Assembly: GCA_036679645.1 (NCBI GenBank)
Contig: JAZDCY010000014.1
Coordinates: forward strand, 258,601 to 322,600
Direction of reading: 5' to 3'
Length of the DNA: 64,000 nucleotides
From: Gemmatimonadota bacterium
GTDB lineage: Bacteria; Gemmatimonadota; Gemmatimonadetes; Gemmatimonadales; GWC2-71-9
The notes below the pieces were generated by a model. The model was not told where the DNA came from and did no database searches. It saw only the letters and a program-made list of their open reading frames with translations. Of this stretch, positions 36,218-64,000 are shown one piece after another. Within the stretch, counting starts at the first letter, position 1. Every line of letters begins with the position of its first letter. Both the position numbers and the translations under genes were made by a program.

Positions 36218-37585
36218 TTAGAACGCCAGGTGGAGCGACACCCGTGAGAAGTTCTCGAATAGGGGCAGATCAGGGGCGGACTCTCCTGACCACGTCGTGC
36301 CGATCATCAGCATGATGTTGGAGCCGAGGAGCATGAGGAGATCCGCCGAATAGCGCTGGAAGTTCGCTGGGAATCCCGGCGGAAACCCATCCACGTCAAC
36401 CCGCTCGTAGCGAGCGCCCGGTACGAGCCAAGGGTAGAGATACGCTTGCACCTCCGCCATCGTTACGATCGCGGACGGATTGCTGAGCTGCGGCCGGTCG
36501 AGGTTGTCGTTGAACAACTGCACCGATCCCAGGATGCTGATGTAGCCGTTCTCCTGGTCCCAACGCACGTCGGCACCCAGGCGGCTGAAGTGGTTTCCGG
36601 CAGGGAGGAATGACGCAGGATCGTCGGGATCCTCCAGGAAACCGGACGTACCTCGGTAGTAGAATCCCCCCACCGAAACTGCGCCTCGCAGCCACGTACT
36701 GTAGTTCAGGCGCGCGTAGTAGTCCTTCTGATTATTGAGATCGAAATCGCTCCCGGATTCGTCGTACGCCTGTTCGAGTCCCTCGACCAACTCGCCCGCG
36801 GGTCCCTCGGCGCCTTCGAGAGCCTCGAACGCGCCTCCGGGTTCGCCGTTGACCAACCCGAGGGCATATTCGAATTCTCCGAGGCCACCTGGGCCGGGAA
36901 CGCGACCAAAGGCTTCGATCCCTTTCTGATTCGGGGAGAAGCCGAAGAAATTCTGCGCCGGTATGATTGGGAGAACGCCGTTCAGGTAAGGCGTGATCCG
37001 CAATAACCGACGGTGGTTCGAGAAGGCGATGGCACGTGGCTCGAACTGGCCGACCCGGACGTTCAGGGCGAGCGACCGGTTGTATTGCACGAAGAGTCGG
37101 TCAATGCCCTCGAATTGGCCCTCTTCCACCAGGGCTACGTTGCCGAAGAACGAGAAATAATCCCCCATGGCTCCGCCAAACACCAACCCAACTCCGCTGA
37201 TTCCGGTGAACTCCGTCTCGATATCTTGGTCGGGCCGGTAACGGAAATCCGCCAGTATCTGGAACGACGCAACGGATGTCGCTGGCATATCGATAAACGG
37301 GATTCCGCTTCCGCTCCTGCCCTCGGGCGTTTCCACAGGCGACCCGAGGGGAAGCGGCTGCTCGCCCTGCTCCAAACCGGCACCAGGCAGGCGGTACCCC
37401 TTAGCGCGGAAAAGTCGCCCGTATTCCGTCAGGGCGGGAAACACGGTGTGGCATGCGCTGCAGCTCAGCCCATAGCGCCGCGCGAAGCTCGGGACGGATT
37501 TCTCGGATCGGGATGCCATCCCGAAAGGAAGAGCGACGACCACGAGTCCAAGTGTCGCGGTGCACGTCCTCCAAGAGTTCATCAT
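36218..37585 (-). CDS. cyc2: Cyc2-like fused monoheme cytochrome c-porin
   Basis: After the signal peptide: VPSFARRYGLSCSACHTVFPALTEYGRLFRAKGY; barrel-like remainder ending in LHLAF. Confidence 0.8.
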   Translation of the reverse strand: MMNSWRTCTATLGLVVVALPFGMASRSEKSVPSFARRYGLSCSACHTVFPALTEYGRLFRAKGYRLPGAGLEQGEQPLPLGSPVETPEGRSGSGIPFIDMPATSVASFQILADFRYRPDQDIETEFTGISGVGLVFGGAMGDYFSFFGNVALVEEGQFEGIDRLFVQYNRSLALNVRVGQFEPRAIAFSNHRRLLRITPYLNGVLPIIPAQNFFGFSPNQKGIEAFGRVPGPGGLGEFEYALGLVNGEPGGAFEALEGAEGPAGELVEGLEQAYDESGSDFDLNNQKDYYARLNYSTWLRGAVSVGGFYYRGTSGFLEDPDDPASFLPAGNHFSRLGADVRWDQENGYISILGSVQLFNDNLDRPQLSNPSAIVTMAEVQAYLYPWLVPGARYERVDVDGFPPGFPANFQRYSADLLMLLGSNIMLMIGTTWSGESAPDLPLFENFSRVSLHLAF

Positions 37586-37656
37586 TGCTGATCTCCCCTT
37601 TGGCCCAGAGTCGGGCGGCTCACACGGCTGGCCAGCTTCTCCAGCCCAGCCGCCAG

Positions 37657-38454
37657 TTACTGCTGGATGATCGAGAGCAGGTAGTTCGTGAGATCCCATA
37701 TCTGGTCGGGCGTGAGCGCGTCCTCCCAGCTGGGCATGGGCGTCCCGCCGATTCCCACCGCGATGCTACGGTATACGTCCTGCGGTCGGTTGCCTCCGCG
37801 CCAGTTCCGCGACATCCGCAGGTCGGCGGGCACGATCGGGAAATCCCAGTCGTCTAGGAGTGTCGCTGCGGATGGCCCGTCACCTTTCCCGAGCATGCCG
37901 TGACACTTCCAGCACTCTGCTTCGATGAAGAGGCGGCGTCCAGCCGTGACACTCTCTGGAAGCGGGGGCTTCGGCCGGCCGATCGCGATCGGCTCCTCCC
38001 GCTCGTCCGTCCGGAACCGGTCTGAGAACGTCTGGATGTACGCCACCAGCGCCCAGCGCTCCTGCTCGGAAAAATTGGACCAGCCCGGCATCGTCGTCCC
38101 CGGCATCCCACGAGTCACCGTGTTGAACAAGTCCTCATCGGTCGGGAGCTGCCCCGTTGTCGTGGAGCTGATCTTGTAGATGCCGCGCGTAAAATCACGT
38201 GGGTGGGGAAAGACGTATCGGGATACGGACCCGTCACCGCGGCCGTTGGTGCCGTGACAGAAGACGCACCGGCGTCGGTAGAGCCGTTTCCCCCTCCGCA
38301 CGACGTCCCTCTGATCGACCTGGCCTCCGTCAGGCGCGGTCTGCGCGGCGGCCCCGGCTGGCAGAAGTAACACCGCTGCCGCGATCAGCAGCGTGATGTT
38401 GGTACGTGCTCGCTTGGGAACCCGTTGCCCCGTCATGCCGGTCTCACGTAACAC
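37657..38454 (-). CDS. Diheme cytochrome c (PRDFT...LPTDEDL type)
   Basis: CVFCH and CWKCH, GTTMP and GTPMP axial Met motifs; exact start uncertain. Confidence 0.9.
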   Translation of the reverse strand: MLRETGMTGQRVPKRARTNITLLIAAAVLLLPAGAAAQTAPDGGQVDQRDVVRRGKRLYRRRCVFCHGTNGRGDGSVSRYVFPHPRDFTRGIYKISSTTTGQLPTDEDLFNTVTRGMPGTTMPGWSNFSEQERWALVAYIQTFSDRFRTDEREEPIAIGRPKPPLPESVTAGRRLFIEAECWKCHGMLGKGDGPSAATLLDDWDFPIVPADLRMSRNWRGGNRPQDVYRSIAVGIGGTPMPSWEDALTPDQIWDLTNYLLSIIQQ

Positions 38455-38469
38455 GAGATAGCCTCCCAG

Positions 38470-39237
38470 TTAGTTCGACGCGAATCGCGCCTGAACTCGC
38501 GTGTCACTTCCGGTGGTAACCGTCACCTGCTGCGTCTGGCTCCCGAGCTGCTCGTGCCACAACTCGAGCGTGTAACTGCCCGGTGGCACGTTGTCGAGTT
38601 GGAAGTTCCCGTTTCCGTCCGTGATCGCATAGTAGGGATGCGCCGCAACCGTGATCCACCCGCTCATCCAGTCATGGGCGTCACACCGGACGTGGACGAT
38701 CTCCGGAAGAGGCAAGCGTACGCGCACAGACGTCAAGAACCCTGGCTGCGCCTTGTTTACCGGCCGGTTCTCCGTCCCGCGGGTGTGGACGTTGTGAAGG
38801 ATCCCGTCACTGTTGCGGACCTCGAATGTCTCACCCGCCTGCACGATCAGGACGTGAGGCGTGAAGCGGCAACCCCGTTGGTCGAGAGCGGGCGGCGAGG
38901 TCGTATCCCATGGCTTGCCTTCCCGAACGTCGCTGAGCCATACAACGACGTTCAGCAGACCCCCGTCCTCGCCGACGACCAGGTCCTCTGCGAATTTCGG
39001 CTCCTGATCGCACACCTCGCCATCTTGGGTGATCTCGAGCCGCCTGGGTGCCGGCACCGGATCTGAAAAGGTGACTTGTCCGACGATTACCCCACCGTCC
39101 GAAACGGTTCGCGGCCGGTAGGAGCCGGCCTGTTGCCCCAAGCTCGGCACCGTGTCCCCCACGAGCAAGACCATGATGGCAATACTGATGACGCTCCACA
39201 TGACGCGAGCGTTCTCTGATCCGGTTCCAGTTGTCAT
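38470..39237 (-). CDS. Cupredoxin-like plus carboxypeptidase-regulatory-like domain protein
   Basis: LDQRGCRFTPHV, NSDGILHNVH, CDAHDWM, VPPGSYTLELWHE. Confidence 0.82.
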   Translation of the reverse strand: MTTGTGSENARVMWSVISIAIMVLLVGDTVPSLGQQAGSYRPRTVSDGGVIVGQVTFSDPVPAPRRLEITQDGEVCDQEPKFAEDLVVGEDGGLLNVVVWLSDVREGKPWDTTSPPALDQRGCRFTPHVLIVQAGETFEVRNSDGILHNVHTRGTENRPVNKAQPGFLTSVRVRLPLPEIVHVRCDAHDWMSGWITVAAHPYYAITDGNGNFQLDNVPPGSYTLELWHEQLGSQTQQVTVTTGSDTRVQARFASN

Positions 39238-49950: not shown

Positions 49951-50115
49951 GCAAGAGCGCTTCGCTTCGCGCGGCTATCTACGCGTTCGCCATGCTCAGC
50001 GGGAGCACCAACGGATTGGAGGCCCAGGGGACAGTCACAGACGACAGCCTCTTTTCGCTAGCGCTGGGGACTCAGAAGCGCGTCAAGATCTACCTTCCGC
50101 CATCCTATCATCGGA
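49947..50115 (+). pseudogene. N-terminal fragment of a secreted esterase (alpha/beta hydrolase)
   Basis: Signal peptide plus DSLFSLALGTQKRVKIYLPPSY, cut off by the convergent gene. Confidence 0.65.
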
Positions 50116-51403
50116 CACGCACCCGTCCCTTGTGGCCGTTGTGGAGCGTGCACTCGTAGTCGTAGTCGCCGGCCGCAACGAACGTGCGAGAGATTGCCGA
50201 TCCCGGGGAAGTATCCGGGATGTTCCCGCCCGGCGGAGCAGAACCGTCGAATGTCACATTGTGCGTGATCCCCGAGAAGATCCACGTCACCATCCCGCCA
50301 ACCGGAATCTCGACTCGTTCGGGGATAAACTGATCGGCGGTCATCGTCACCGTATCCACGCTCGTGGGCGGTGGCGGTGGAGGCGGCGCCGAGTCGACCC
50401 TAATTAAACCAGCCATCCCCTGCCCACCCGCGTCACCGTGGAACTGGCAGTAGTACGGCAGCGTCGTGCCCAGTGGGGTTGATGCCGGCACGATCCAACT
50501 CCACCGCTGACCCGCATCGACGGTACCCGAATCCCACGTACCGTCATCCGCCGTGCTCGTGTGCGGCCGGTTGCCGGTGTTGTCCCACACGATCTTCGTC
50601 CCCGGCATTACGGTGATCGTAGCGTCCGTGAAGAAGTTGTCCTGCATCTGGACGACAACGGAATCGGTTGATGACGCGTGCGTCCCTACGCGGATAGTGC
50701 CCGACATCCCAATTCCACCCGTGTCGCCATGGAACACGCAGTAGTACGGCAGCGTTGAATCTGGTTGCGCATCGATTGGTACGGTCCAGCTCCAACTTTC
50801 TCCCGGCTGCTTGGTGCCGGAGTCCCAAAGCCCGTCATCACTAGTCGCGGTGTGCGGGCGACTCCCGGTGTTACGCCAGATGATGCGCGTGCCGGGCTCG
50901 GCAGTGACATCCGCCGAGAGGAAGAAGTTATCATCCATCAACACGACGACCGAATCAGATGAGGCCGTCTGACCGGATGTAACCGTGACGCTTGTGGTGG
51001 CGCTTATCGACCCACCCGCATACTCGAGTGTGACCTTAGGCGTATACGTCCCGGTGTCCGCATACGTACAGGCGTCGGCAGCGGAATACGGATTCACGTC
51101 GGTGCGTACCTCGACTTCGAACTCTCCGTCGTTCGTACAGTCAAAGCGGTACGTCAGCGGCGGTACTGGTGGAGCGACTACCGCCGCCGTGAGCCCAATG
51201 ATCAACGGTGCGACACCGCCGCTCGGGCTAGCGGCAAGCGATACCGACATTGTCCCGGGCTCGGTCGTGAACTCTTCGCCGCGATCACACGAGATGCCGT
51301 ACGCAGCGATCAGGATACACGCATACCCCCAGGCGATCGTCTTGGGGAAGAATACCCGAACACAATGATCGTATTTTGCTCTGCGCCGTACGCGCCACTT
51401 CAT
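50108..51403 (-). CDS. Probable lipoprotein with a PKD-like domain and three plastocyanin-like cupredoxin domains
   Basis: PHTAT...YYCVFHG...GM; PHTST...YYCQFHG...GM; HNVTF...YECTLHNGH; GISC lipobox candidate; start uncertain. Confidence 0.8.
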   Translation of the reverse strand: MKWRVRRRAKYDHCVRVFFPKTIAWGYACILIAAYGISCDRGEEFTTEPGTMSVSLAASPSGGVAPLIIGLTAAVVAPPVPPLTYRFDCTNDGEFEVEVRTDVNPYSAADACTYADTGTYTPKVTLEYAGGSISATTSVTVTSGQTASSDSVVVLMDDNFFLSADVTAEPGTRIIWRNTGSRPHTATSDDGLWDSGTKQPGESWSWTVPIDAQPDSTLPYYCVFHGDTGGIGMSGTIRVGTHASSTDSVVVQMQDNFFTDATITVMPGTKIVWDNTGNRPHTSTADDGTWDSGTVDAGQRWSWIVPASTPLGTTLPYYCQFHGDAGGQGMAGLIRVDSAPPPPPPPTSVDTVTMTADQFIPERVEIPVGGMVTWIFSGITHNVTFDGSAPPGGNIPDTSPGSAISRTFVAAGDYDYECTLHNGHKGRVRVR

Positions 51404-51600
51404 ACACACCTCCCGAAGCAACTCAACGGACAAATCTCATTCCCGCCAAACATCGCACACCAGAGACGACGGGCAGCGACGGATCGTCCATATGGGAGTG
51501 ATGAACTCTCACTTACTGTCCATCACTACTGTACTGGGGGTTAAGCGTTCGTGGGCTGAGTATGAAGCTTTCGTGAGCGGCTCGCCCTATCCCGACAGAT

Positions 51601-53280
51601 CTATGATGGGCGCCCTGCGTGGCCGGGATCCGCGGTGATACCGAAACGGTTTAGCAACCCGGATTCCCGCTGCCGGCGGAGCCATACGATCAGCCCGTAC
51701 TCCGCGCCAACGGCACCGAGGACGACGAGCAACACGACCAGGTAACTCGTCCCGGGAGGCGATTCGCGCAGGTGGAGGAAATACCACGAGGAGACCGCCA
51801 TCTTCAGGCCCGTCTCGCCATTGGCACCTTCCCACACGTGGAAGGCAATCGGGACAATTCGACCCGGTTCCAACTGAACCTCTCGCGCGCCGTCCTCTGT
51901 AGCGAGCGGCCTGCGAATAACCACGGTCCACTGGCCGTCCGCCCACGTGGCGTTCGCGGACGCGCGCTGGCTCTCGGCGTCATGAGGCTCGGGCGGCTGG
52001 GCCGCACCCCGGCCGCGGAGTTCGACCGCTGTCGGATCGCCGGCGCGATCCGCCTGCCAGCGCCAGAGGTCGACCGGCTGCCCGGCGCTGCCGTATACGA
52101 AATGCGGAAGCGCCGGTCCCCCGCCGTAGCGCAGCGGGAACATCACTTCTATACCATCAGGGTACGTGGCCCGTGTCCGAGCGCCATCGGGGAAAAACCG
52201 CGGAAACGTATCGTCGGCTTCCCACCCGTCGCGATGCGTGAGCGCAGAATCGACCGATATCGTGTCCATGAAGCGGTCGTTCCACCGCAGACGAAACGCG
52301 ACATCAGAGGCGTCATAGAGCACTTGCACCGCGAGATCGGACACGGCTGGGACCTGCCAGCGTGGTGGAAACGTGGCCTGACCGGAGAGGGTGAGCCACG
52401 CCTCGGGGGCGTCCGCCCACGCTGGGTCATTGGGCGCGGTCGGCAGTGAATCGTCGACACGCACTGCGGTGATCACCACATTGGTCGCCGGCGTGCCAGC
52501 AAGCGGTGCAGCAAGCGATGAGACGTAGTACGCGAGACGCCAGCGGTCGTCCTCGCTTAGCGTCTCCGAGTATGACGGCATTGGCGTGCCATCGAGCCCC
52601 GTGCTGAGACGTAGGTACATCTCGCGAGGTGTGCTGCCCCCCTTGATCTTCCATCCGGTCTGCAGGTCGGCCGGCAGCACCGGAAAGTCCCAGTCGTCGG
52701 TGAGTTCGGCCGCGCGCTCGCCGTCACCACGCCCCACCTGCCCGTGGCACTCCCAGCAGTCGGCATCTTCGAAGACGGTTACGCCTGCGTCCCGCAGTTC
52801 TGCAGACGAGCCATCTGGCGGTGACCCTATAGCTACGACAAACTGGTATGGGTCGAACTCTTCGTCCTCGAACAGCCCTTCCGCGAATGTCTTGATGTAC
52901 GCAATCACCTGCCATCGCTCGGCTGCGCTCAGCACAGACTGCCACTCGGGCATCGCCGTGCCCGGGATGCCAAGCGAAATGGTCCGGAACAGATCCTCGT
53001 CAGTCGGGAGTTCGCCGCTCTCTGTCGTGCGCAACTTGAAACTGGCGAGTGTGAAGTCTCTCGGCCGGGGCCAGAGATATTCGGCCACCGGACCAGTTCC
53101 GTCACCGTCTTCACCATGACAGAACCAACAACGTTCCTCGTAAAGACGCCGACCCGCTTCCGTGCTCGCAGCATCCGCAACGGGCCGCCCGGGAACGGAC
53201 AAGTCAATCCATTGCGCCGACGCAGCATGGGGAACAATGGCAATCGCGATCCAGACGAGGGCTGCGTGGAGCAACTTCAC
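51601..53280 (-). CDS. Membrane-anchored diheme cytochrome c with an ethylbenzene-dehydrogenase-gamma-like (EB_dh/DOMON) domain
   Basis: CWFCH, CWECH, PRDFT...LPTDEDL; RLRWND, WTVVIRRPL, AFHVWEGANGE; C-terminal TM. Confidence 0.85.
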   Translation of the reverse strand: MKLLHAALVWIAIAIVPHAASAQWIDLSVPGRPVADAASTEAGRRLYEERCWFCHGEDGDGTGPVAEYLWPRPRDFTLASFKLRTTESGELPTDEDLFRTISLGIPGTAMPEWQSVLSAAERWQVIAYIKTFAEGLFEDEEFDPYQFVVAIGSPPDGSSAELRDAGVTVFEDADCWECHGQVGRGDGERAAELTDDWDFPVLPADLQTGWKIKGGSTPREMYLRLSTGLDGTPMPSYSETLSEDDRWRLAYYVSSLAAPLAGTPATNVVITAVRVDDSLPTAPNDPAWADAPEAWLTLSGQATFPPRWQVPAVSDLAVQVLYDASDVAFRLRWNDRFMDTISVDSALTHRDGWEADDTFPRFFPDGARTRATYPDGIEVMFPLRYGGGPALPHFVYGSAGQPVDLWRWQADRAGDPTAVELRGRGAAQPPEPHDAESQRASANATWADGQWTVVIRRPLATEDGAREVQLEPGRIVPIAFHVWEGANGETGLKMAVSSWYFLHLRESPPGTSYLVVLLVVLGAVGAEYGLIVWLRRQRESGLLNRFGITADPGHAGRPS

Positions 53281-54062
53281 CGCTCGCCCCCCTCCGGTAT
53301 CCGCGGCTCTCTACCACTGATCCGGTACTCGGCGAGAATGATGCGCCAGATCTCGTCCGACGTGAGTTGGTCCTTCCACGACGGCATGGCCGAGTTCCAC
53401 GGGGTCGCAATGACGGGGAGCCCGGGCGCACCCTCTTCGATGCGCCAGAACGGATACGACTCCACGACTGTGGCGATAGTGCCGGGGTCGGTGAAGTCGA
53501 CGGGCCTGAGTCGCAGGCCCCGCGCGAGCGGGCCGCCGCCGTCAGCCTTGGTGCCGTGACACGGCCGGCAATTCGTTTGGAACAGCACCACTCCTTCACG
53601 TTCGGCCTCTTCGCGGTCGGCTGCTGACAGTGCGCGAAACGGGTTTGTGAGTTCGGCGTACCGATCCGGCATTGTCGGATGCTGCACGCGCAGCGCCGCC
53701 GGTGGGGTCGTCCGGGGCATCACTCGCCCCCATGTGAACCACCCCATGGCCAACGGGAGCAGGGCGAGCACCGCGAGCTGCATACGCGGGATCGCTACGC
53801 GAGGCACGACGAACAGGCGCACGATCGGCCCCATGAATGCGTGCCACCGCTGGTCATCGCTGCTCAGGTACACTGCCGCACCGACGAACGCGCACGCCAT
53901 GTAGATCGCAAGCGCGAACGCCGGTACCGGCGCCGGATTGGGGCTCGCGCCCGTGAGCACCGCAACCCACGGAATCAAGAAGCGAATGCCAAGATAGACC
54001 GCAGCGAGTATGGCGACGGTCCACACAAAGACCCGCGGATTCCGCCCTATCGGATTCGTCAC
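53277..54062 (-). CDS. Membrane-bound monoheme cytochrome c
   Basis: About three N-terminal TMs, CRPCH, FWRIEEGAPGLP...PWNSAMP. Confidence 0.85.
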   Translation of the reverse strand: MTNPIGRNPRVFVWTVAILAAVYLGIRFLIPWVAVLTGASPNPAPVPAFALAIYMACAFVGAAVYLSSDDQRWHAFMGPIVRLFVVPRVAIPRMQLAVLALLPLAMGWFTWGRVMPRTTPPAALRVQHPTMPDRYAELTNPFRALSAADREEAEREGVVLFQTNCRPCHGTKADGGGPLARGLRLRPVDFTDPGTIATVVESYPFWRIEEGAPGLPVIATPWNSAMPSWKDQLTSDEIWRIILAEYRISGREPRIPEGGER

Positions 54063-54070
54063 CGCTCCTC

Positions 54071-55051
54071 CTACTGCAGCGTCAGCAAGAAGGCCAACAG
54101 ATCGTGCAACGCTCCCACTGTCAGCACCTCGGCAAAATTGTCTGGCATTAGTGAGAGCTCTTGCACGCGTTGTCGCGCTATGTCGGACTTCGCGACTGGG
54201 AGCTCCTCACCGTCAGAGGTCGCGAGCCAAAGAGAATCTTCAGTTTCCCGGCGCACGATGCCATCGAGTATGCGGCCGTCAGTGGTTTGGATGAGCGAGG
54301 CTTCGTAACCACTGGCAATCTCGGCACTCGGCCGGAGGATAGCCTCGATGATGAACTGCGCGGTCCGCGTACCGGCGACCGTGGTGAGTTCGGGTCCGAT
54401 TTCTCCGCCGCGATCGCCTACGCGGTGACACTTCGCGCACGGCGCCGGCCCATCGACGTCGAAGAACAGGGCCCGCCCATTCAGTGAGTCGCCGACTATG
54501 TAGGGCTCCCACGGTGCCGCGCTACCCGCCCGTCGACTGGCTTGCCGTATGGATGCTGGTAGAACGATTGCGCCCGGATCCGGGGCACCGCCGACCGACT
54601 GCAAGTACAGGATGACCGACGCGATCGCATCAGGACCGAGGCTTATAGGTGGCTCGTACACCTTCGGCATCTCGTCCTTGAAGCCCTCGACCACGTACGC
54701 GCTGGGATCCGCAATGGATTCGATCAGGTATTCGGTGGCGGTCATGTCATGACCAAGTGCCGCGGCACGCTCGCTCGCTCGCCCGACGGCGCGGATCGCG
54801 ATCTCGGACCCGGCTGCAGACTGTCCCAGGTTAGGGCAGCGAACGGAACTGCCGATCGTGCCGATAGCGTGACACGTGTGACACTTGCCCGGACCCCAGA
54901 ACACCTGCTCGCCGATCTCGACGCTGACCCCTTCTCCAACCGCCCCGCCGCCGCCGCCACCGGACGCTCGTGTGACGATCTCGCCAGCCCATACGAACAT
55001 GCCTACGAGCGCGACGGTAAACAGCGGCGTCTTGATCCAATTACTGCCCAC
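54071..55051 (-). CDS. Membrane-anchored diheme cytochrome c
   Basis: CHTCH...EYLIESI.DP..YVV.G...MP; CAKCH...IGPELT...SLMP. Confidence 0.87.
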   Translation of the reverse strand: MGSNWIKTPLFTVALVGMFVWAGEIVTRASGGGGGGAVGEGVSVEIGEQVFWGPGKCHTCHAIGTIGSSVRCPNLGQSAAGSEIAIRAVGRASERAAALGHDMTATEYLIESIADPSAYVVEGFKDEMPKVYEPPISLGPDAIASVILYLQSVGGAPDPGAIVLPASIRQASRRAGSAAPWEPYIVGDSLNGRALFFDVDGPAPCAKCHRVGDRGGEIGPELTTVAGTRTAQFIIEAILRPSAEIASGYEASLIQTTDGRILDGIVRRETEDSLWLATSDGEELPVAKSDIARQRVQELSLMPDNFAEVLTVGALHDLLAFLLTLQ

Positions 55052-55084
55052 GCGCGTCGCTCCTCGCCCAAGCCCGAGTCGTTG

Positions 55085-57091
55085 TCATGTGACCTCGGTC
55101 GGGACAGATGCCGCGTCGGCCTGCGCGGGCCCGTTCTTCTTGCCCGTGAGCCCCGCCAGCCAGAACAGGAACGCCACCGCGGCCAAGAACACCAGCGTGA
55201 TGGCGCCGACCATGCGAGCCATCTCGGCGTTGCTGGGCGTGTACGCCCACTGCGACGTATCCTGAAGCACGCCGTAGATGTGCCAGTTCTCCCGCAGCCC
55301 CGACCGGACGAAACCCATGAGCCCCATCGTGAGCACGATCGTGACGCACAAGGCGATGAGGGCGTACTGCGCTCGCTCGGGTACATCACCCCAACGAATC
55401 CGCCCGATGCTCTGCGCACCCCGAAGGAGCGGGATATCGATCGCGGTCACGAGCAGGAGAGCCGTCATGAGAATCAGCCACTGCGTGACCGCGATCTGGC
55501 GGAGGAACGGATTCGCCTGGGTCATCACGACAAACCCGTAGACACCCAGCACCCCGACCGATTCGATGGCCACGACCGCTACGTAGAGTACCTGAGCCAC
55601 GTGTCCCCGGTCGCGCAACGTGAGCACCACGCTGGCAACCACCGCAGCCATCGTCACGACCAAGAGCACAGCGGGTAGGCGGAAGTACACGGCCTTTTCG
55701 GGACCGAGGTCAAGGGCTTCCGGGTCAAGCGTGAACAGGGCGTGTGCGTACCATCCGAGCAGGAGCAGGCACAGCACCCCTCCTCCCATGAGCGTCGCTT
55801 TGGCGCCGATACCCTGTGTTGAAACCGGAACCAGGCTCGTCTTGTTGGCCCTGCGGTACAGCAGGAAGCTCGCAAACGTCGCCAGGATGATGAAGTTGAT
55901 GACCGCGTTCTTAGCGGCCATCAAGCCAAAATAGCCCAGGATCGGGTGAATCTGCCCGCCCAATGCGAGCTGCTCTTCGCCGGTCAGCGGGAGGTTGCGG
56001 GGCGTGAGCCAGATTGCGACACAGACTATGAGAATGGCATTGAAGTACTTGATATACTTCTGATATCGCTCCGCACCCGGGATCCGTCGCATTCCGGACC
56101 ACAAGTAATAGTTGCCGAGAATGAACAACATGCCGACGAGCATTGCCTGCATGATGAATGTCCAGGAAAACGCGCCGCCCATCATGTTGTTGCCCATGAT
56201 GGGGCTCGTGCTGTAGATCTCTCGGCCCAGGTAGTAGCCGGCAAATGGGAGAGGAATGAGCGCCGCCAGGCCAATGAAGTTCCCGACGTATCCCATCCAA
56301 TCATAATGCGCGCGTTCCTCGGTTGTGCGCGCCGAGAGGAACTTCACCGCCGCATACGCTCCGACCACGAAGCCGCCAAACACGATGTTCCCGAGCAGTC
56401 GATGGATGTTCAGCGGCATCCAGAGGGGATTGGTGACCGCCTCCATGGTCGTTCCCACAAAAGTGCCACTTTCGTCGAAGCCTACGGGACTCATCATGTA
56501 CGATGCCCATGCGTTCCCGATGAACACGAGCGCCGTACCCGAGACATTGAGCAGGACACCCAACGTGATATGGAGTCCCTTCCGCCCCTGCAGACGGCTC
56601 CACGAGTTGTAATACAGGTAGAGGAGCGCGGTTTCCACGAAGAAGAATCCGGCGTACACGTACATCGACGGAGCGAAGATGCGCACGAAGTACGTGGAGA
56701 ATTGCGGGTACAGACCGAAGAGCGTGAACGCTAGGAGCCCGCCCAGCGCAGCCGTCATGGCAAAGGCCGCGGCCAGCAGACGCGTGAACTCATGAGCGAG
56801 TTTATCGTAGCGGTGGTCCCCCGTGCGCCATCCAATAAACTCGACGATGACCGCGAATAGGGGAACGCCGAGCACGAACGCGGCGAACAGCAGGTGCATC
56901 TGTGCAACGAACCAGACGACGTTGCGCGGGTTGAGACCGAAGAAAGTGCGAACCGTGTCGGGCGCGTCTTGCGCCGCCAGGAGTACATCCGGGCCGACGA
57001 GCGTCAGCGCAACGAGGGTCAAGGCGATACGCGCTACGCCCCACGCGCGGACACTCACTCGCGCCGCACGCTGTGTGATGAGCTTGGACAC
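55085..57091 (-). CDS. Cytochrome bd-like oxidase subunit I (non-canonical, Nitrospira/OR-N-like)
   Basis: QMHLLFAAFVLGVP and NIHRLLGN heme-ligand His equivalents; GFVRSGLRENWHIYG in place of GRQPW; no cydB adjacent. Confidence 0.82.
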   Translation of the reverse strand: MSKLITQRAARVSVRAWGVARIALTLVALTLVGPDVLLAAQDAPDTVRTFFGLNPRNVVWFVAQMHLLFAAFVLGVPLFAVIVEFIGWRTGDHRYDKLAHEFTRLLAAAFAMTAALGGLLAFTLFGLYPQFSTYFVRIFAPSMYVYAGFFFVETALLYLYYNSWSRLQGRKGLHITLGVLLNVSGTALVFIGNAWASYMMSPVGFDESGTFVGTTMEAVTNPLWMPLNIHRLLGNIVFGGFVVGAYAAVKFLSARTTEERAHYDWMGYVGNFIGLAALIPLPFAGYYLGREIYSTSPIMGNNMMGGAFSWTFIMQAMLVGMLFILGNYYLWSGMRRIPGAERYQKYIKYFNAILIVCVAIWLTPRNLPLTGEEQLALGGQIHPILGYFGLMAAKNAVINFIILATFASFLLYRRANKTSLVPVSTQGIGAKATLMGGGVLCLLLLGWYAHALFTLDPEALDLGPEKAVYFRLPAVLLVVTMAAVVASVVLTLRDRGHVAQVLYVAVVAIESVGVLGVYGFVVMTQANPFLRQIAVTQWLILMTALLLVTAIDIPLLRGAQSIGRIRWGDVPERAQYALIALCVTIVLTMGLMGFVRSGLRENWHIYGVLQDTSQWAYTPSNAEMARMVGAITLVFLAAVAFLFWLAGLTGKKNGPAQADAASVPTEVT

Positions 57092-57094
57092 GCC

Positions 57095-57895
57095 CTAAGT
57101 TTGTGGGCTCAGCTCAGCATTGACAACTGTTGACTGATTAGCGCTTACCGTGACGTCCTGCGTAGTCGTGCCGAGCGTCTCGTGCCAGATCTCGACCGTG
57201 TACGTGCCCGGCGGCACGTTCTCGATGACGAACTCCCCATCCGCTCCGGTCAGCGCGTGGTACGGATGGTCGATGACGATCACCCACGCGTTCATCCACT
57301 CATGGATGTCGCACTTCACCTTTACCTTGTCGGCGTAGGCAAACGTCGTCTCGATCTCGCGCATCGCGGCGGGCTGCGCGCGATTCAAAGGCCGGTTCTC
57401 AAAGGTGACCGTGTGCACGTTGTGCGTGATTGGGTCGCTGTTCAGAATCTTTATTGTTGAGCCCACCGATACGAGCAGGATATGCGGTGCAAACTGGCAC
57501 CCGTCTTGATCCAATGAGGCTGCGGCGGCAGGCGTCTCGAGCGCAGCTCCTTGCGAGATGTTGGTGATGGAAACGACTGCGTTCGCGAGGCCGTCGCCGG
57601 CGCCCGTCTGGACGGTCTGAATCACCTTGGACGCCCCGCACGTTCCCACATCTTCTCCGATGGTCACCGTTCGAGGTGCCGGGGCCGCGCCGGCCAGACG
57701 AATAGTCCCGCGAATCGACCCAGCGTTCGACACGGCCACCACCGAGTAGCCCGAGCCGCTGGCCGCCGCCGGCTGCGCCGCGGGCAAGGTATCGGAGGCC
57801 GCGCTGTCGCCGGCGTTATCACCTCCGCCACCACAGGCTACCAGACCCGCGGACAATGTTGCAAGGAACAGTCCTGTCGTCTTGGTCATCACCAT
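57095..57895 (-). CDS. Lipoprotein, cupredoxin-like plus carboxypeptidase-regulatory-like domain
   Basis: LVAC lipobox, LDQDGCQFAPH, NSDPITHNVH, CDIHEWM. Confidence 0.82.
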   Translation of the reverse strand: MVMTKTTGLFLATLSAGLVACGGGGDNAGDSAASDTLPAAQPAAASGSGYSVVAVSNAGSIRGTIRLAGAAPAPRTVTIGEDVGTCGASKVIQTVQTGAGDGLANAVVSITNISQGAALETPAAAASLDQDGCQFAPHILLVSVGSTIKILNSDPITHNVHTVTFENRPLNRAQPAAMREIETTFAYADKVKVKCDIHEWMNAWVIVIDHPYHALTGADGEFVIENVPPGTYTVEIWHETLGTTTQDVTVSANQSTVVNAELSPQT

Positions 57896-57973
57896 GTCTT
57901 CATCCCCACGATTGGGTTCGAGTAGTGGGCGGCAACGGCTACAAGCCATCGCCGGTTTGATCCAACCGGCGAC

Positions 57974-58678
57974 CTAGGGAGAGAACGTGAAGGTGACAGT
58001 GGCTGCAGTGCCCTCCTCAACGGTGACAGATTGCTCCAACTCCCCGAACACCTCGTGCCAGATTTTCACGGTGTGCGTTCCCACCGGTACGTCGCTTATC
58101 TCGAAGGCACCATCCGCGCCCGAGACCGCGAAATAGGGATGGTCGAAAATGACGATCTGTGCGTGCATCCACGAGTGTGCGTCGCATTCAACCTCGATCC
58201 TGCCCGCCCGGCGCAGTGGCCGATCGGCTGTGATTTCAGCACCCTTGCGGGACAATGCCCAATTGCCAACGGTCCGAGTGCGCGTTCCACGCACCATGTT
58301 GAGATGGGTGTTGTGCAGGACGTCGTCCTGATTGGTTACGAGGAGCGTGCCACCCGCCGTCGTCGCGAGCACCGGCGGATCGAACATGCAGCCCTCGTTG
58401 GCGAGTGTGTACTCACGCTCCCCGGGATCCCCTGCAACCCCTTCGACCGAGGCAACGGCGTATGCGACGTTTCCGCCGCTGACCATGACGTCCCTGGCGT
58501 TGAGACTCTCGCCGCAAACCTCCGGGTTCTTATCGACCGTGATAACGCGAGGCGCAGGTGCGGATCCTGACAGACGGACCGTTCCCCTGATCGTTCCGGT
58601 TTGCGACCACAATGACGCCGGCATAACCAACAGTGCGGCTGCGATGGTTCGCGTCAGTGCAGCAGACAAGGTGTTCAC
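57974..58678 (-). CDS. Cupredoxin-like plus carboxypeptidase-regulatory-like domain protein
   Basis: NEGCMFDP, NQDDVLHNTH, CDAHSWM; GGAGGA RBS. Confidence 0.82.
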   Translation of the reverse strand: MNTLSAALTRTIAAALLVMPASLWSQTGTIRGTVRLSGSAPAPRVITVDKNPEVCGESLNARDVMVSGGNVAYAVASVEGVAGDPGEREYTLANEGCMFDPPVLATTAGGTLLVTNQDDVLHNTHLNMVRGTRTRTVGNWALSRKGAEITADRPLRRAGRIEVECDAHSWMHAQIVIFDHPYFAVSGADGAFEISDVPVGTHTVKIWHEVFGELEQSVTVEEGTAATVTFTFSP

Positions 58679-58735
58679 AAAGATTCCTCCTCCGAAATCA
58701 GTTCCAGTACGCCGGCCTTCCAGCGGGTTGTTACG

Positions 58736-59818
58736 TCAGAAAAAGGCGTGGAATTCTATGCTCAGCCGATCGAGATCGTCTGTCGCCTGGGGGATGTTCT
58801 GATCGAGCGTGTAGAACGTCGAGACCTGCAGAAACGGCATGGGAAATAGTTCCAACCCGAACCGCGCGCGCGTGCGCGCATTCTCGCCGATGTCCGAGTC
58901 TGGATCCAGAAACCCGTAGGTCACCTTCGTATTGACGCCTCGAACGAGTAGGAAGTTCCCTTCCAGGTATGCTGCGAGCTGTTCGGTGGCCGTGCCCGTC
59001 TCGGGCGTGTCCCGGATCACATCGACTTCGCCCAATACGGTAAACCGCCCGAGGTTGAAGCCCGCGAAACCGCCGTACACGTCTCGTCGGCTACCGGGGC
59101 CCTCATTCCTCGACGCGGAAACACCAATGCGTCCCGGACGGAAGATCAGCGCGGCGGATCCGGTGACCTGCTTGCCGTTGTTGTTCTCGTCCGCGCCCTG
59201 CGTGCCGTTGGTGACCGCGACGAACAGCGAGAGCGGAGCGGGCTCGATGCCGAACTCGACACCCTGGTCGGGCGTGGCATAGTTGAAGCCCGTGCGTCCG
59301 CGGATGAACTCCGTATCATCGACGAGCCGCAGACCGTAGGGGAGAAGAAACTTCCCCACCTTGAGATACGCGTCCAAGGTACGTGCCTCGAGCATCGCGA
59401 AGGCTTCCCGTGTGCTCGCGGAATTGGGCCCGACGATTTCGTCTACGTACACGGAGAGAACATCGGGCACGAGTCGCGCTTCGATCTGGACGTTCGCTTC
59501 GGGTATCGCCAGTGCGGTACGAGGTGTCGACTGGCGTGGCGTTCCGCTCGCCAGCAGCCGCAGGTTGCCCCCTATAGCCAGCCAATCGTTGAGCGAGCGG
59601 CCGCGAAATCCTCGTCGCCCAATGGGCAGGCGCGTCTGTGCAAAGACCGACCCAAACGCGGTGCGTCCGCCGCCACCGGTCCGGTTCGTGTGGCACTGCG
59701 AGCACCGCAGGCCCGTGCGCACCGAGAGGTACGGCTCGCGATCGGGGCTGGCGGCCGACACGCTTGGGACAAACAAGAAGAGCGCGACGACCACGGGCAG
59801 GATCCAGGGCTGTTTCAC
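58736..59818 (-). CDS. Fused monoheme cytochrome c-porin (divergent Cyc2-like architecture)
   Basis: EPYLSVRTGLRCSQCHTNRTGGGGRTAFG after the signal peptide; VGKFLLPYG, DENNNGK, terminal HAFF. Confidence 0.75.
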   Translation of the reverse strand: MKQPWILPVVVALFLFVPSVSAASPDREPYLSVRTGLRCSQCHTNRTGGGGRTAFGSVFAQTRLPIGRRGFRGRSLNDWLAIGGNLRLLASGTPRQSTPRTALAIPEANVQIEARLVPDVLSVYVDEIVGPNSASTREAFAMLEARTLDAYLKVGKFLLPYGLRLVDDTEFIRGRTGFNYATPDQGVEFGIEPAPLSLFVAVTNGTQGADENNNGKQVTGSAALIFRPGRIGVSASRNEGPGSRRDVYGGFAGFNLGRFTVLGEVDVIRDTPETGTATEQLAAYLEGNFLLVRGVNTKVTYGFLDPDSDIGENARTRARFGLELFPMPFLQVSTFYTLDQNIPQATDDLDRLSIEFHAFF

Positions 59819-59827
59819 TGCACCTCC

Positions 59828-60265
59828 CTAGTTGGCTTCAGCGCCGTTCGCGATCCACTCGCGGATAGCGGTGATTTGGTCGGCCTGGAGTGGAGGCAGG
59901 TTGCGCGGCATCCGGAGTCCGACGATGCCGTCTCTTCCCTCGATTTTCCAGACGATGTAACTCGAATCTGGCTTGCCCGGGTTCACGCGTAGGAGTTCCG
60001 AGATTTCCTCGCTGCCGACACCTAGCAGGTTCTGACGCGCTACGCCGGCGTCGAGCGCCAACCCCAATGGTGCGGCTGATCCCGTGTGGCACTGCGTGCA
60101 TATGGGCGTGAAGATGTTCGCCTGAATCCCGGACAGCGTGGGACCCAATGGCACGGCATCGGTGAGCGGTTTCCCGAAGGGGTCCAGGCCGGTGCCCTCA
60201 CCGGGACAGCCGACCCCGACCACGAGAAGGACCGCAACCGCGGCAACTCCACGCGCGCCCATCAC
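59828..60265 (-). CDS. Monoheme cytochrome c lipoprotein
   Basis: VGVGC lipobox, IFTPICTQCH, PGKPDSSY, RMP...IREWI.NGA. Confidence 0.85.
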   Translation of the reverse strand: MMGARGVAAVAVLLVVGVGCPGEGTGLDPFGKPLTDAVPLGPTLSGIQANIFTPICTQCHTGSAAPLGLALDAGVARQNLLGVGSEEISELLRVNPGKPDSSYIVWKIEGRDGIVGLRMPRNLPPLQADQITAIREWIANGAEAN

Positions 60266-61212
60266 CGTTTCTCCTGAAAGTCCGGGTTTTCCCTGAACAA
60301 GCGGTAGAACAGACCGCGTCCTCGATCCAGGGAACGCAGATAATAGACGAGCGCCCAGAGCCGATCGTGTACGAGCCGTTCGACGTCCGGGTCGGGCATC
60401 GCGTCAAGAGCCGCCTGCGTCGGTTGCCCGGCTAGGTACGCCTGGAGCGCGAGAATGGCCTCGTCATCGTAGATGTCGCGGGCGGTCTCAACGTCCCCGT
60501 CCGCTCCGCCCGGGTACGCAACCATGCCACGCTCGAAGGCCGGCATGGGCGAGCCGGAGAGACCGGTCACTAGCGTGCGATAGATGTCGGTGGGATCGGA
60601 CCCGTTCTTGTAATTGCCACGCGTGAAGTCGTAGGGCCTGATCTGCCGGCCCCAATCATCTTCGAGATCCGAGGCCGAGGGACCGTCTCCCCGCCCTACC
60701 GTCCCGTGGCACTGCGCGCAACCGAGCATGGCGTAGACGAAACGCCCCTCCCCCACAAGTGCCGGCGACCCGCCGGGTGCGGGCGGGATTTCCACCGGCG
60801 GATCGGGCTCTTCCTCGCCGAAATACTCGGAGAACTCCTTGATGTATGCGACGAGGGCCCACCGCTGCGCGGGAGTGAGCAATCCCTCCCATGCCGGCAT
60901 CCACGTGCCCGGGACCCCGCGCGAGATACTGCGGAACAGATCTTCGTCGGTTGGTAGGGAGCCGGTAGGCGTACTGCGGAACTTGAACACTCCCGCCGTG
61001 AAGTCACGTGGCTGTGGACTGCCCAGGCGCGGAGCGCCCGGTCCATTGCCGTCGCCGAGGTTCCCGTGACATGGGGAACACGCATCGCCGAACAACCGTC
61101 CCGCATCGACCGAGCTGACGTGCGCAGGCGCCTGCGCGGATGCAAGGCTGACCGACGCAGCGGCGAGCATGCCACCGAGAATGAAGCGACAGATCGAATA
61201 CCTGGTTTTCAT
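60262..61212 (-). CDS. Diheme cytochrome c (PRDFT...LPTDEDL type)
   Basis: CSPCH, CAQCH, GTWMP, GSPMP; signal peptide. Confidence 0.9.
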   Translation of the reverse strand: MKTRYSICRFILGGMLAAASVSLASAQAPAHVSSVDAGRLFGDACSPCHGNLGDGNGPGAPRLGSPQPRDFTAGVFKFRSTPTGSLPTDEDLFRSISRGVPGTWMPAWEGLLTPAQRWALVAYIKEFSEYFGEEEPDPPVEIPPAPGGSPALVGEGRFVYAMLGCAQCHGTVGRGDGPSASDLEDDWGRQIRPYDFTRGNYKNGSDPTDIYRTLVTGLSGSPMPAFERGMVAYPGGADGDVETARDIYDDEAILALQAYLAGQPTQAALDAMPDPDVERLVHDRLWALVYYLRSLDRGRGLFYRLFRENPDFQEKR

Positions 61213-61387
61213 GATCGGATCAAGATCGCGCCGTGTCCAAGGACGACAAACCGCACGTCTGGACGACGGCCCTCGGTAAGGGGTTCATGAAACCGGCCGC
61301 TCCGAGAAGCTCACCTGTTCTTAGCCCGGGGTGGTGAACGCAGGCTTGAGTCCGGGTGAACGTTTCTTCATAAACGCTCGCCAGCAA

Positions 61388-61414
61388 GGAGGCGCCGCTT
61401 CTGGCGGCGCCTCC
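61388..61414 (-). terminator. Hairpin downstream of the tetra-cupredoxin gene
   Basis: ggaggcgccgc-ttctg-gcggcgcctcc, 11-bp perfect stem, only a weak U-tract. Confidence 0.5.
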
Positions 61415-61457
61415 GCTGATCCGTCGGCCGTGGCAGGGGTTCGCACCGACCCTTCGT

Positions 61458-63302
61458 TCACGGGCTCACGACGATGGTTCCGGTCATTCCAGCGGCAGCG
61501 TGTCCGGTGATGGTGCACAGGACATCATATGTTCCCGCCGCGGTGGGTACAAGGAAGAGGGTCGTACTCCCTCCGACCAGAAGCTCGATTGCCCTCAAGT
61601 ACGGTGCCTTGATCTCCGCCTGCGAGTCCTCCGCTTTCCGCAGCACCACCGATTCATAGAACCCCGCGGCCGTGTAGTAGTGCTTGGACGCGTGGCCAGC
61701 CGGATTCGAGATTGCGAAGCGGTATCCCGCACCCACCGTGAGCGCCACGTCCGGCGGCACGAAGCCCAGGACGTCGAGGTTGGGATTGCTCTCGAACATG
61801 GCTACCGCGGTGTCCACGGCGGTGGTCCACACCGCATGAGACCCGGACCGCCGTGCATCTGTCATCAGGGTCGGGTCGAAGCCGGTGGACACCCCCAGAT
61901 CGAGTTGGTAACCCGTACCTCCAACAATGGTCGCCGTTGCCGTCATGCCACGATCTTTGTGCCCGGTAATCGTACAGATGATATCGTACGTCCCCCCCAC
62001 CACCGGGACGAAGTAGATCTCCACGGTGCCGCCGATCAGGAGTTCAACGGCATCGAAGTATGGCGCTTTGTACTCCGCATCCGCGGTCTGCATCTTTCGC
62101 GTGGCGATGGCCTGATAGAAGCTGGTGCCTTCAGGCGACCAATAGTGCTTGCTGGTGTTGGAGGCCGCGTTCGTGATACGCAGGACATACGGCCGTCCCG
62201 CTTCGAGAACCAGGTTGTTGGGAGCGAACGAAAGGGCGTTGCCGGCTCCCTCCACCATCTGGACGTCAATAACAGATCGCTCATCCCAGTTCACAGCGCC
62301 CACCCAGTCGGACGCGTTGACCGGTGGCGATGACACCGGCGGTGCCCGGACCTCGATCGTCCCCGTCATCCCTGCTGCGGCGTGTCCGGTAATCGTACAC
62401 AGAACTTCATACGCGCCCGCCTCCGCCGGCACGACAAAGAGCGTGGCTTCCCCCCCGATCTGCAGCTCAACGGCGTTGAGATACGGCGCCTTGATTTCGG
62501 CGTGGGAGTCCTCGACCTTCCTCATCACGACCGTTCGGTAAAACTCTGCGGCCGTGTAGTAGTGCTTCGACGCGTGACCCGATGGGTTCTCCAGGCGAAT
62601 CCGATACCCCAGACCCTGGGTGAGTTGTAACGCGCTTGGCGAGAAGCCGAGGCTATCCAGCGATGCCCCACTCTCGAACATGGAAACCACCGAATCGACC
62701 GCGCCTGTCCACACCGCGTGCGAGCCGGATCGACGGGCATCGGTCATCAGACTCCGGTCGAAGTCGGCCGCCACCTCGAGGTCGAGTTGGTACCCTTCGC
62801 CTCCGGTGATCGTCGCAGTGGCGGTCATGCCGGCTGCTTTGTGCCCGGTGATCGTACAGATGATGTCATACGTCCCCGCCAGGACGGGCACGAAGTAGAT
62901 CTCGAGCGTACCGCCAATCTGCAGCTCGACAGCGTCGAAGTACGGGGCCTTGTATTCGGCCTCCCCGGTCTCGATCTTTCTCGCAGCGATGGCTTGGTAC
63001 CAACTCGTACCCTCGGGTGACCAGTAGTGCTTGCTGCTGTTCGACGCAGGGTTGGTAATGCGCAGAACATACGGCTTCCCCGCCTCGAACGTCAGATCGT
63101 TCGGCGAGAAGGAGAGCGCTCCCCCCGGTCCCTCTACCATCCGTACGTCGATGACGGTTTTCTCGTCCCAGTTGACGAAGCCGACCCAGTCAGAAGCCGC
63201 AATGGGCGTGACTCCCGGTCCGACGGGGTCCCCCTCGTCACAGGCGACAGCGGCGGCGACTACGAAGACGAGCGCCCCACACGCGAATTTTTGGAAACTC
63301 AT
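61458..63302 (-). CDS. Lipoprotein with four tandem cupredoxin domains (A-B-A-B)
   Basis: AGGAGG RBS, AVAC lipobox; four copies of SKHY...KAPY...CTITGHxxxGM. Confidence 0.87.
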   Translation of the reverse strand: MSFQKFACGALVFVVAAAVACDEGDPVGPGVTPIAASDWVGFVNWDEKTVIDVRMVEGPGGALSFSPNDLTFEAGKPYVLRITNPASNSSKHYWSPEGTSWYQAIAARKIETGEAEYKAPYFDAVELQIGGTLEIYFVPVLAGTYDIICTITGHKAAGMTATATITGGEGYQLDLEVAADFDRSLMTDARRSGSHAVWTGAVDSVVSMFESGASLDSLGFSPSALQLTQGLGYRIRLENPSGHASKHYYTAAEFYRTVVMRKVEDSHAEIKAPYLNAVELQIGGEATLFVVPAEAGAYEVLCTITGHAAAGMTGTIEVRAPPVSSPPVNASDWVGAVNWDERSVIDVQMVEGAGNALSFAPNNLVLEAGRPYVLRITNAASNTSKHYWSPEGTSFYQAIATRKMQTADAEYKAPYFDAVELLIGGTVEIYFVPVVGGTYDIICTITGHKDRGMTATATIVGGTGYQLDLGVSTGFDPTLMTDARRSGSHAVWTTAVDTAVAMFESNPNLDVLGFVPPDVALTVGAGYRFAISNPAGHASKHYYTAAGFYESVVLRKAEDSQAEIKAPYLRAIELLVGGSTTLFLVPTAAGTYDVLCTITGHAAAGMTGTIVVSP

Positions 63303-64000
63303 GATAGACCTCCTAGGCAGAATCGAAGAAACCCGACAGGTCATTTGGCATAAAACAGACCCCGCACACATTCCTATCGGGACTCATCGGCTACCTCGTT
63401 GCGCCACTAGTAGATACATCGTTTTGGCCATTCCGTAGGCGCACCACTGTCGGCGGGAGAATGAGACGCTCACGGTCACACCTACTCTTGCCATTGTCCC
63501 ACTTCTGCGAGTTGTTTCGTCGGAGTTGGCTTCGGGTTGTCGCCTCGTCTCGCGACGCGCGTTGCTCCGGCGAGAACGCGGTCCACAGGCGTGTGAGCGC
63601 GGCTCTGAACCGGCCCTCGGGTGTAGTATTTGTCGGCGGTTAGCGCAGTCTCGATCCGCAAACCGGGTAACGGTTCGCTGGGACTACCACAAGTGGGTCA
63701 GGAGAGTCGATGAGGTCCGGTCATCTCGTTTTCGCGGCGCTTGCGATCGCTCCGGCAGTCGCCCTCGCCACACCGTCGTTTCGTGACGCGCCTGGTGCTT
63801 ACCACGATGCGGAACGTGTTTCATATGCCGACGTGCAGCGTGTCCTGGACGCGCACTGCGCGGGCTGCCACACGGGACCGGAGGCTGCTGCCGGCCTGCA
63901 TCTGGGGGCATGGGAGGAGGTCGTTGCCGGCTCGCGGTACGGTGCTGCGGTGATTCCGTTCGACGCGGCGCGGAGCCTCATGATCGGAATGACGACGAGG

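Follow-up and report, generated by a model that had tools for sequence, protein, structure and literature searches.

Do an outer-membrane haem protein and a cytochrome bd-like membrane protein, when encoded in one gene row, form the two ends of a single electron-transfer chain? The question is raised by a 64,000-nucleotide stretch of contig JAZDCY010000014.1 (hereafter the window) from an uncultured Gemmatimonadota bacterium. Between window positions 50108 and 63302, eleven open reading frames (ORFs; g1 to g11, Table 1) follow one another on the minus strand and encode cupredoxins, c-type cytochromes, a predicted cytochrome-porin (g4) and a CydA-like protein (g7). A preliminary description of this DNA, made from its letters, had read the row as an analogue of the rus operon that wires an extracellular donor such as Fe(II) or Mn(II) to a bd-like terminal reductase. 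The reading preferred here is that the row may form an inward electron wire whose last step is the reduction of O2 by the bd-like module; a probability of about 0.38 is assigned to this reading. Within it, an electrical link between the porin haem and the module g6 to g10 is in itself quite probable. Of the chain as first described, the predicted haem-bearing barrel, the recurring join and the carriers that fit inward flow have stood up; the O2 end is not supported in the form in which it was stated.

From g1 to g11, the intergenic gaps measure 245, -4, 9, 57, 24, 3, 33, 8, -4 and 167 bp, and the start of g1 at 63302 is preceded by a Shine-Dalgarno-like AGGAGG. Coordinates and gaps agree with the co-oriented order listed earlier. 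The looser member is g11, separated from g10 by the 167-bp gap; it has no match among 63 CydA-anchored loci, and in relatives it accompanies the porin module and is not placed after g10. A scan for promoters and terminators remained at chance level (2 vs 2.8 expected, 7 vs 8.9 expected). The row holds nine CxxCH motifs (two each in g2, g8 and g10, one each in g3, g4 and g9), whereas 2000 shuffles of the g1 to g11 proteins averaged 0.012 and never gave more than 1, as well as nine candidate type-1 Cu sites (four in g1, three in g11 and one each in g5 and g6). The four H..C-x4-H-x4-M sites of g1 are invariant in 18 aligned homologues, and the His/Cys/His/Met set is kept in 20-21 of 20-21 aligned relatives of g5 and in 42 of 42 of g6. 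In the third cupredoxin domain of g11, His replaces the axial Met. Counts, shuffles and ligand conservation thus bear out the nine haem motifs and about nine candidate Cu sites reported before.

As carriers, the row has class I cytochromes with His/Met ligation and type-1 Cu proteins, and no multihaem protein. Such cytochromes and type-1 Cu sit at high potential, as in uptake chains, so that mono- and dihaem cytochromes with type-1 Cu, rather than multihaem carriers, fit an inward flow of electrons. Pfam assigns a cupredoxin domain to g1 and g11, and CarboxypepD_reg plus an amicyanin-like part to g5 and g6. Found in 16 of 401 class genomes, g1 is weakly sulfocyanin-, rusticyanin- and auracyanin-like under the NCBIfam cut-offs; the rusticyanin model TIGR03095 reaches 54 bits against a cut-off of 147, with both g1 and g11 under it. 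The '+2 Asp' idea of Lol sorting was not used for g1 (Asp occurs in 12 of 35 lipobox-pattern matches). The architecture of g10 is that of an alternative NxrC (alt-NxrC), and its dihaem part is near PDB 6h5l_B (E 1.6e-60). At the EbdC-type haem b ligand positions of g10, Tyr and Met align and H393/M494 are partly conserved; we take the EbdC ligands to be Met/Lys.

The cytochrome-porin

With a length of 360 amino acids (aa), g4 begins with a hydrophobic stretch at residues 6-24, followed by CSQCH at residue 39. Its AlphaFold2 model, based on 116 homologues, has 16 long strands at a mean predicted local distance difference test (pLDDT) score of 86, and the best PDB matches in Foldseek are 16-strand porins, OprP and OprO among them. 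The protein thus models as a barrel, as had been anticipated. Of 120 close relatives (query counted), 118 retain the haem motif, both misses being N-terminally cut, and so do 112 of the 114 full-length sequences among 149 distant relatives. No Pfam or NCBIfam model matches g4, and a PDB sequence search with the porin profile gave no match at E up to 1. For a homologue of g4 (P0019), the nearest clusters in the ESM Atlas are unnamed and the nearest one that has a name is 20% Porin_O_P. Counted as clusters at 50% identity, the family comprises 1694, 910 and 321 members at E up to 1e-3, 1e-10 and 1e-30, respectively; within the phylum, 29 of 401 genomes have a strong match (34 of 401 at E up to 1e-3).

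The resemblance of g4 to Cyc2 lies in its signal peptide, its single N-terminal CxxCH and its predicted 16-strand OprP-like barrel. In addition, Pro and CxxCH stand in matching register, and Cyc2-motif proteins give a weak profile match (hhalign probability 87 over 114 columns). However, the Cyc2 rules of Keffer et al. (10.1101/228056) include AxPxFAR[Q/K][T/Y] upstream and PxL downstream of CxxCH and a length of at least 365 aa. Neither motif was found in g4, PxFAR[QK][TY] occurs in none of the 114 full-length relatives, and g4 falls short of the 365 aa that FeGenie sets as the Cyc2 minimum. Its family motif reads EPY[LIF]AxRxG..CxxCH.NxTGGGxR. An identification of g4 as Cyc2 is rejected by these published motif and length rules, and its sequence therefore places it in a separate cytochrome-porin family of Cyc2-like architecture. 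Since this family has no Pfam or NCBIfam model and lies outside the Cyc2 rules, surveys of iron genes are likely to overlook it; should it oxidise metals, the extent of lithoheterotrophy in Gemmatimonadota has been underestimated.

Unlike Cyc2, g4 has a dedicated monohaem lipoprotein partner, g3, itself without matches in Pfam or NCBIfam. Among 41 distinct porins of the family, 39 have g3 directly upstream and 14 have g1-g2-g3. Prediction of a g4+g3 complex scored 0.03 against a mark of 0.32, which is evidence in neither direction. A second g3-g4 lineage (L067-L091) occurs without g1 and g2, and its g3 has CxxxxCH instead of CxxCH. These pairs mostly lie just upstream of a conserved 542-aa gene, presumably a P5C dehydrogenase.

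The CydA-like protein and its module

The earlier assignment of g7 as a CydA-like subunit is upheld by PF01654 and by a CydA fold in its model (pLDDT 87), which has about 15 long helices; 13 hydropathy peaks and no CxxCH are seen in the sequence. The closest folds are bd oxidases (Z 31-35, about 350 aligned residues), followed by ActC and PsrC (Z 15-20). Like E. coli CydAB, g7 keeps equivalents of the CydA residues H19, E107, H186, R448 and W451, as do all rows of a 70-row comparison in which one row duplicates another. Unlike it, g7 has extra helices, Gly at the W441 equivalent and a Met-rich segment in place of the region with the quinol ligands K252/E257; three further differences are weighed below.

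These features fit the OR-N1/N2 enzymes, described as bd-like with about 14 helices, no quinol site and no haem c (Murali, 10.1101/2021.01.16.426971), so that g7 is regarded as OR-N-like; assignments to qOR or OR-C were rejected. In the parts of these works that deal with them, OR-N enzymes are proposed to be cytochrome c-oxidising O2 reductases (Murali, 10.1101/2021.01.16.426971; Kop 2024), their bd-like function being called unconfirmed (Kop 2024). A tree of 69 CydA-like rows, which carries no reference labels, separates into two clades. The kin of g7 come from Scalinduaceae, Nitrospirae, Nitrospinota, NC10, Rokubacteria and Anaerolineae. CydA-like matches occur in 114 of 401 phylum genomes, the unpublished G181 included, and the g7 clade in 5 of 401.

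The surroundings of g7 are stable: in 43 of the 44 loci whose flanks are long enough it is followed by g8-g10, and in 41 of 45 the g7-type gene has a g5/g6-like gene ahead of it. Module B, as g6 to g10 will be called, corresponds to a bd-like/alt-NxrC/cupredoxin set already described from Nitrospina, Nitrospira, anammox bacteria and Manganitrophus, with which it shares a long CydA-like protein without quinol site, mono- and dihaem cytochromes c, alt-NxrC and a cupredoxin-like protein. In the relevant passages of Lucker 2013 (PMC3578206), the set adjoins the nitrite oxidoreductase (NXR) of Nitrospina, Nitrospira and Kuenenia, its bd-like protein is termed 'enigmatic' and a role as alternative complex III (ACIII) is suggested. 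The Manganitrophaceae paper (10.1101/2021.11.15.468770) names it TO_1 and, where it discusses the set, treats it as an oxidase of unproven role that is highly expressed in the Mn(II) oxidiser. Bd-like genes with cytochrome c partners in Nitrospirota, cited before as a precedent, exist as a TO_1-type set. In contrast to the NXR-associated sets, the row has an upstream haem-porin, a lipoprotein with four cupredoxin domains and two more cytochromes, and no NXR gene adjoins it; no molybdoenzyme was found on the host contig, in line with the first statement that the cluster has none. In the sections of the Manganitrophaceae paper that describe them, Cyc2 and TO_1 do not appear as one operon (10.1101/2021.11.15.468770). 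The view that the cluster was undescribed holds for the joined operon, of which no description was found in the literature, supplements and most subscription papers being outside coverage; the g6-g10 half had already appeared in the passages cited (PMC3578206; TO_1). Both halves have precedent; the present analysis adds a separate porin family, a tally of loci with and without the join, and the altered residues of the active site.

Some further arrangements of such modules were seen. In L012, L019, L023, L048, L057 and L059 a bd-like module stands beside an AioA-like molybdoenzyme block, which in L012, L048 and L057 includes a Rieske gene and two CCP-like genes; we assume that this 2xCCP-Rieske-AioA-like block is the quinol-fed iodate reductase IdrABP1P2. 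The host itself has a second bd-like module (L094), flanked by Usp-like genes on one side and by a coxBAC aa3 oxidase on the other. It belongs to the other CydA clade, the one present in most of the matching phylum genomes. In L006 and L011, g5 is separated from a second g5 by two inserted genes, which encode a 499-aa secreted protein without family and an 849-aa monohaem protein.

Joining of the two modules and competing readings

The remaining genes, g1-g5 and g11, constitute module A, a block of cupredoxins, cytochromes and haem-porin that accompanies a Cyc2-motif gene in Gemmatimonadota. Relatives show the order histidine kinase (HK)-response regulator (RR)-cupredoxin-Cyc2-g1-g2-g3-g4-g5, sometimes with g11. 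Among 14 distinct g1-g2-g3-g4 loci, 7 have a Cyc2-motif gene no more than 9 kb from the porin; in several of the remaining 7 the sequence breaks off upstream. The full g1-g10 order is kept in five other Gemmatimonadota genomes. Where at least 4 kb of downstream sequence is available, 5 of 10 distinct loci of the g1-g2-g3-g4 type continue into g7, or 3 of 8 once loci found solely through the CydA scan are dropped. Of 24 genomes with the g7 clade, the g4 porin is present in 9 and Cyc2 is strongly matched in 8; conversely, wherever a strong Cyc2 match was seen in the survey (8 genomes), both the g4 porin and the g7 clade are present too.

The join is not confined to this porin. Among 201 Nitrospirota genomes, 65 have a CydA-like and 67 a Cyc2-motif match; among the matches listed, the two are adjacent in 4 genomes, all reading cupredoxin(s)-Cyc2-type-CydA-like-g8-g9-g10. 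A metagenome contig (L100) encodes a g1 homologue, a tetrahaem c, a DmsE-type multihaem c, an MtrB/PioB porin and a dihaem lipoprotein (the MtrAB-type pair scores above cut-off with TIGR03509 and TIGR03508), and continues with g6, a CydA-like protein fused to cytochrome c and an MrpD-like subunit. Its layout is similar to the PCC and TO_2 theme known from Manganitrophus. The same join is thus made by three porin types and two CydA clades, and its recurrence with different porins, the best argument available, supports a real wiring. Porin, cupredoxins and bd-like genes do co-occur in other genomes (five Gemmatimonadota, four Nitrospirota), as had been predicted; the idea of one integrated chain gains from this and loses by the separability of the halves.

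The rus operon of Acidithiobacillus ferrooxidans is arranged as cyc2-cyc1-acoP-coxBACD-rus. Its parts are listed in PMC10654088. Like it, the row combines an outer-membrane haem-porin, a dihaem cytochrome, cupredoxins and a membrane redox complex, but it has no aa3 oxidase, no rusticyanin above cut-off and, in g4, no motif-defined Cyc2. It is therefore an analogue, as was proposed, in its shared logic and not in these components; orthology was rejected.

If the preferred reading is correct, a dissolved reductant such as Fe(II), suggested by analogy with Cyc2, would reduce the haem that is predicted to plug the porin. Electrons would then pass from g4 to g3/g2, on to g1/g5/g6/g11 and to g10/g9/g8, and finally to g7, an order suggested by the repeated joining of genes; the type of the carriers points to the inward direction. 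Reduction of O2 at g7 itself would be the weakest step, with about even odds. At low O2 the wire would supply the host with additional energy; the host would then be a lithoheterotroph, because neither RuBisCO nor NiFe hydrogenase was found in it by the searches run. The fuller claim, that a porin family missed by iron-gene screens feeds electrons from Fe(II)/Mn(II) via up to nine blue-copper centres into an OR-N enzyme, is tentative. If true, it would represent a new respiratory chain across the cell envelope, put together on three or more occasions with different porins, by which sediment heterotrophs gain energy from metals, and it would reveal a role of OR-N. OR-N bd-like proteins are widespread, and an operon with an outer-membrane haem gives them a defined donor side and allows a direct comparison of oxidase and quinone hub.

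A number of observations weigh against O2 reduction at g7 and against a fixed chain. The E99 equivalent is Tyr and the E445 equivalent Ser/Asn in all 70 rows (Ser in g7), with the mapping of E445 resting on the local register of R448/W451; the global alignment with E. coli CydA is weak (probability 12) and gave no place for M393. No CydB (PF02322) was found in the host genome, which is 92.7% complete. The g7-clade module lies directly before coxBA in 5 Anaerolineae loci, adjoins AioA/IdrA-like genes in 6 loci and occurs in anaerobic/anammox Scalinduaceae, contexts from which it follows that the module is neither O2- nor metal-specific. Given the loss of E99 and E445, the missing CydB and the aa3 or AioA/IdrA-like neighbours, 'terminal reductase' as first worded is not supported, and this function of g7 is about an even bet. 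In addition, the host has two A-type haem-copper oxidases (caa3, aa3) whose COX1 genes lie outside the row. None of 27 other family porins runs into g7, and 15 of the 24 g7-clade genomes have no g4-type porin. The halves are separable and the porin-bd link is recurrent but optional; an obligate link was rejected, as each half occurs without the other. In the part of their study that covers it, Keffer et al. (10.1101/228056) consider even the function of cluster 3 Cyc2 uncertain.

The same active-site losses, with H19, H186 and E107 retained, would suit a real conduit in which g6-g10 is no oxidase but a complex-III-like membrane hub coupling periplasmic carriers to the quinone pool. Electrons could then enter to quinone and on to the aa3/caa3 oxidases or denitrification, or exit from quinol to a high-potential acceptor outside. 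Like complex III, the module stands ahead of a full aa3 oxidase (five loci, and the second clade in the host), and it lies beside the 2xCCP-Rieske-AioA-like blocks taken above to be quinol-fed. Its occurrence in anammox Scalinduaceae, the ActC and PsrC folds next in line for g7 and the ACIII role suggested in Lucker 2013 (PMC3578206) point the same way. However, g7 lacks K252 and E257, the canonical ligands of quinol, OR-N is treated as cytochrome c-oxidising in the passages cited (Murali; Kop 2024) and the host already has an ACIII. The ActC likeness, moreover, may be common to all CydA proteins. A hub of this kind is a possible explanation, somewhat less probable than the preferred one.

That the two blocks are independent neighbours, with the porin-cupredoxin block serving copper handling or, through a two-component system, sensing of outside redox, is unlikely. 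Each half is often found alone, g1 matches CopI weakly (E 1e-8, well under cut-off), HK/RR genes precede module A in relatives, CusCBA-like genes follow g1 in one relative (L145), and the window also contains CopAB and two RND metal exporters at a distance of 18-36 kb. Yet only 24 bp separate g5 from g6, the join recurs in five other genomes and again with other porins in Nitrospirota and L100, copper resistance leaves the four c-type haems of module A unexplained, and unrelated genes separate the copper island from the row. Still less probable is a chain ending in N-oxide respiration, or a g7 that handles NO. The host genome does encode Nar, a NirK-like protein and cNor, and module B accompanies NXR in nitrifiers and anammox bacteria (PMC3578206, in the passages cited). 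In addition, parts of PMC11316326 report 'sulfocyanin' and Cyc2 in Gemmatimonadota metagenome-assembled genomes and suggest that the former ties Fe oxidation to nitrate or N2O reduction. However, the row has no N-oxide reductase gene, narG and norB queries matched nothing in the 63 CydA-anchored loci, and NosZ was not found above cut-off in the host genome.

Host genome and neighbouring genes

The genome had been thought to be that of a proteolytic heterotroph, which is not its only character: narGHJI with narK, a NirK-like gene, norCB (cNor), ACIII, two octahaem cytochromes, the two haem-copper oxidases and two Cyc2-motif genes are present. Cyc2-like genes are also reported from vent heterotrophs in the portion of PMC9769843 concerned with them.

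Table 1 Features of the row, the window and related loci (positions refer to the window unless a contig or locus is named)
Feature	Position	Strand	Description
g1	61458..63302	-	lipoprotein (lipobox AVAC), four cupredoxin domains, each His..Cys-x4-His-x4-Met
g2	60262..61212	-	periplasmic dihaem cytochrome c, kin to N-terminal half of g10
g3	59828..60265	-	monohaem lipoprotein, CxxCH, invariant Met119
g4	58736..59818	-	signal peptide, one N-terminal CxxCH, predicted 16-strand beta-barrel, C-terminal Phe
g5	57974..58678	-	secreted cupredoxin-like + CarboxypepD_reg; H122/C165/H168/M171
g6	57095..57949	-	lipoprotein paralogue of g5, H176/C213/H216/M219; opens bd-like module
g7	55085..57091	-	CydA-fold membrane protein (PF01654), no haem c motif
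g8	54071..55051	-	membrane-anchored dihaem cytochrome c; TIGR02603 domain above cut-off
g9	53277..54062	-	monohaem cytochrome c, membrane-anchored, three helices
g10	51601..53280	-	dihaem c + EB_dh (PF09459, DMSO-reductase-type haem b) + C-terminal helix
g11	50108..51433	-	PKD-like + three cupredoxin domains
Divergent gene, clipped by contig end	63710..64000	+	monohaem c + beta-propeller
Cyc2-motif group	36218-39237	-	g6-like cupredoxin, dihaem cytochrome c, 493-aa Cyc2-motif protein (PSFARRY..CxxCH)
Metal island	13662-35948		CopB/CopA, two RND exporters, two-component system, YtkA-like lipoprotein, porin, cytochrome c
Host block L095	C4:113907-127087		HK/RR, cupredoxin, Cyc2-motif gene, plastocyanin-like gene
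Second bd-like module (L094)	C61:51486-63595		other CydA clade, before coxBAC
narGHJI+narK, norCB, NirK-like, ACIII, octahaem genes	C11, C7:115261-117461, C54:29433-30458, C14, C6:44433-45674, C73:9224-11194		host genes
Metagenome contig L100	L100:263-11780		MtrAB-type pair joined to CydA-like fusion
Insert locus	L006:4356-8409		two-gene insert between g5 and second g5

A Cyc2-motif group and a metal island lie elsewhere in the window, and a further Cyc2-motif block is found on host contig C4, with a paralogue of g4 (53%) 10 kb from it. The contig stops at window base 64000, within the divergent gene upstream of g1. This gene resumes on host contig C76 (114-bp overlap), where it is followed by another g6-like gene, and genes of its type adjoin the bd module in seven related loci.

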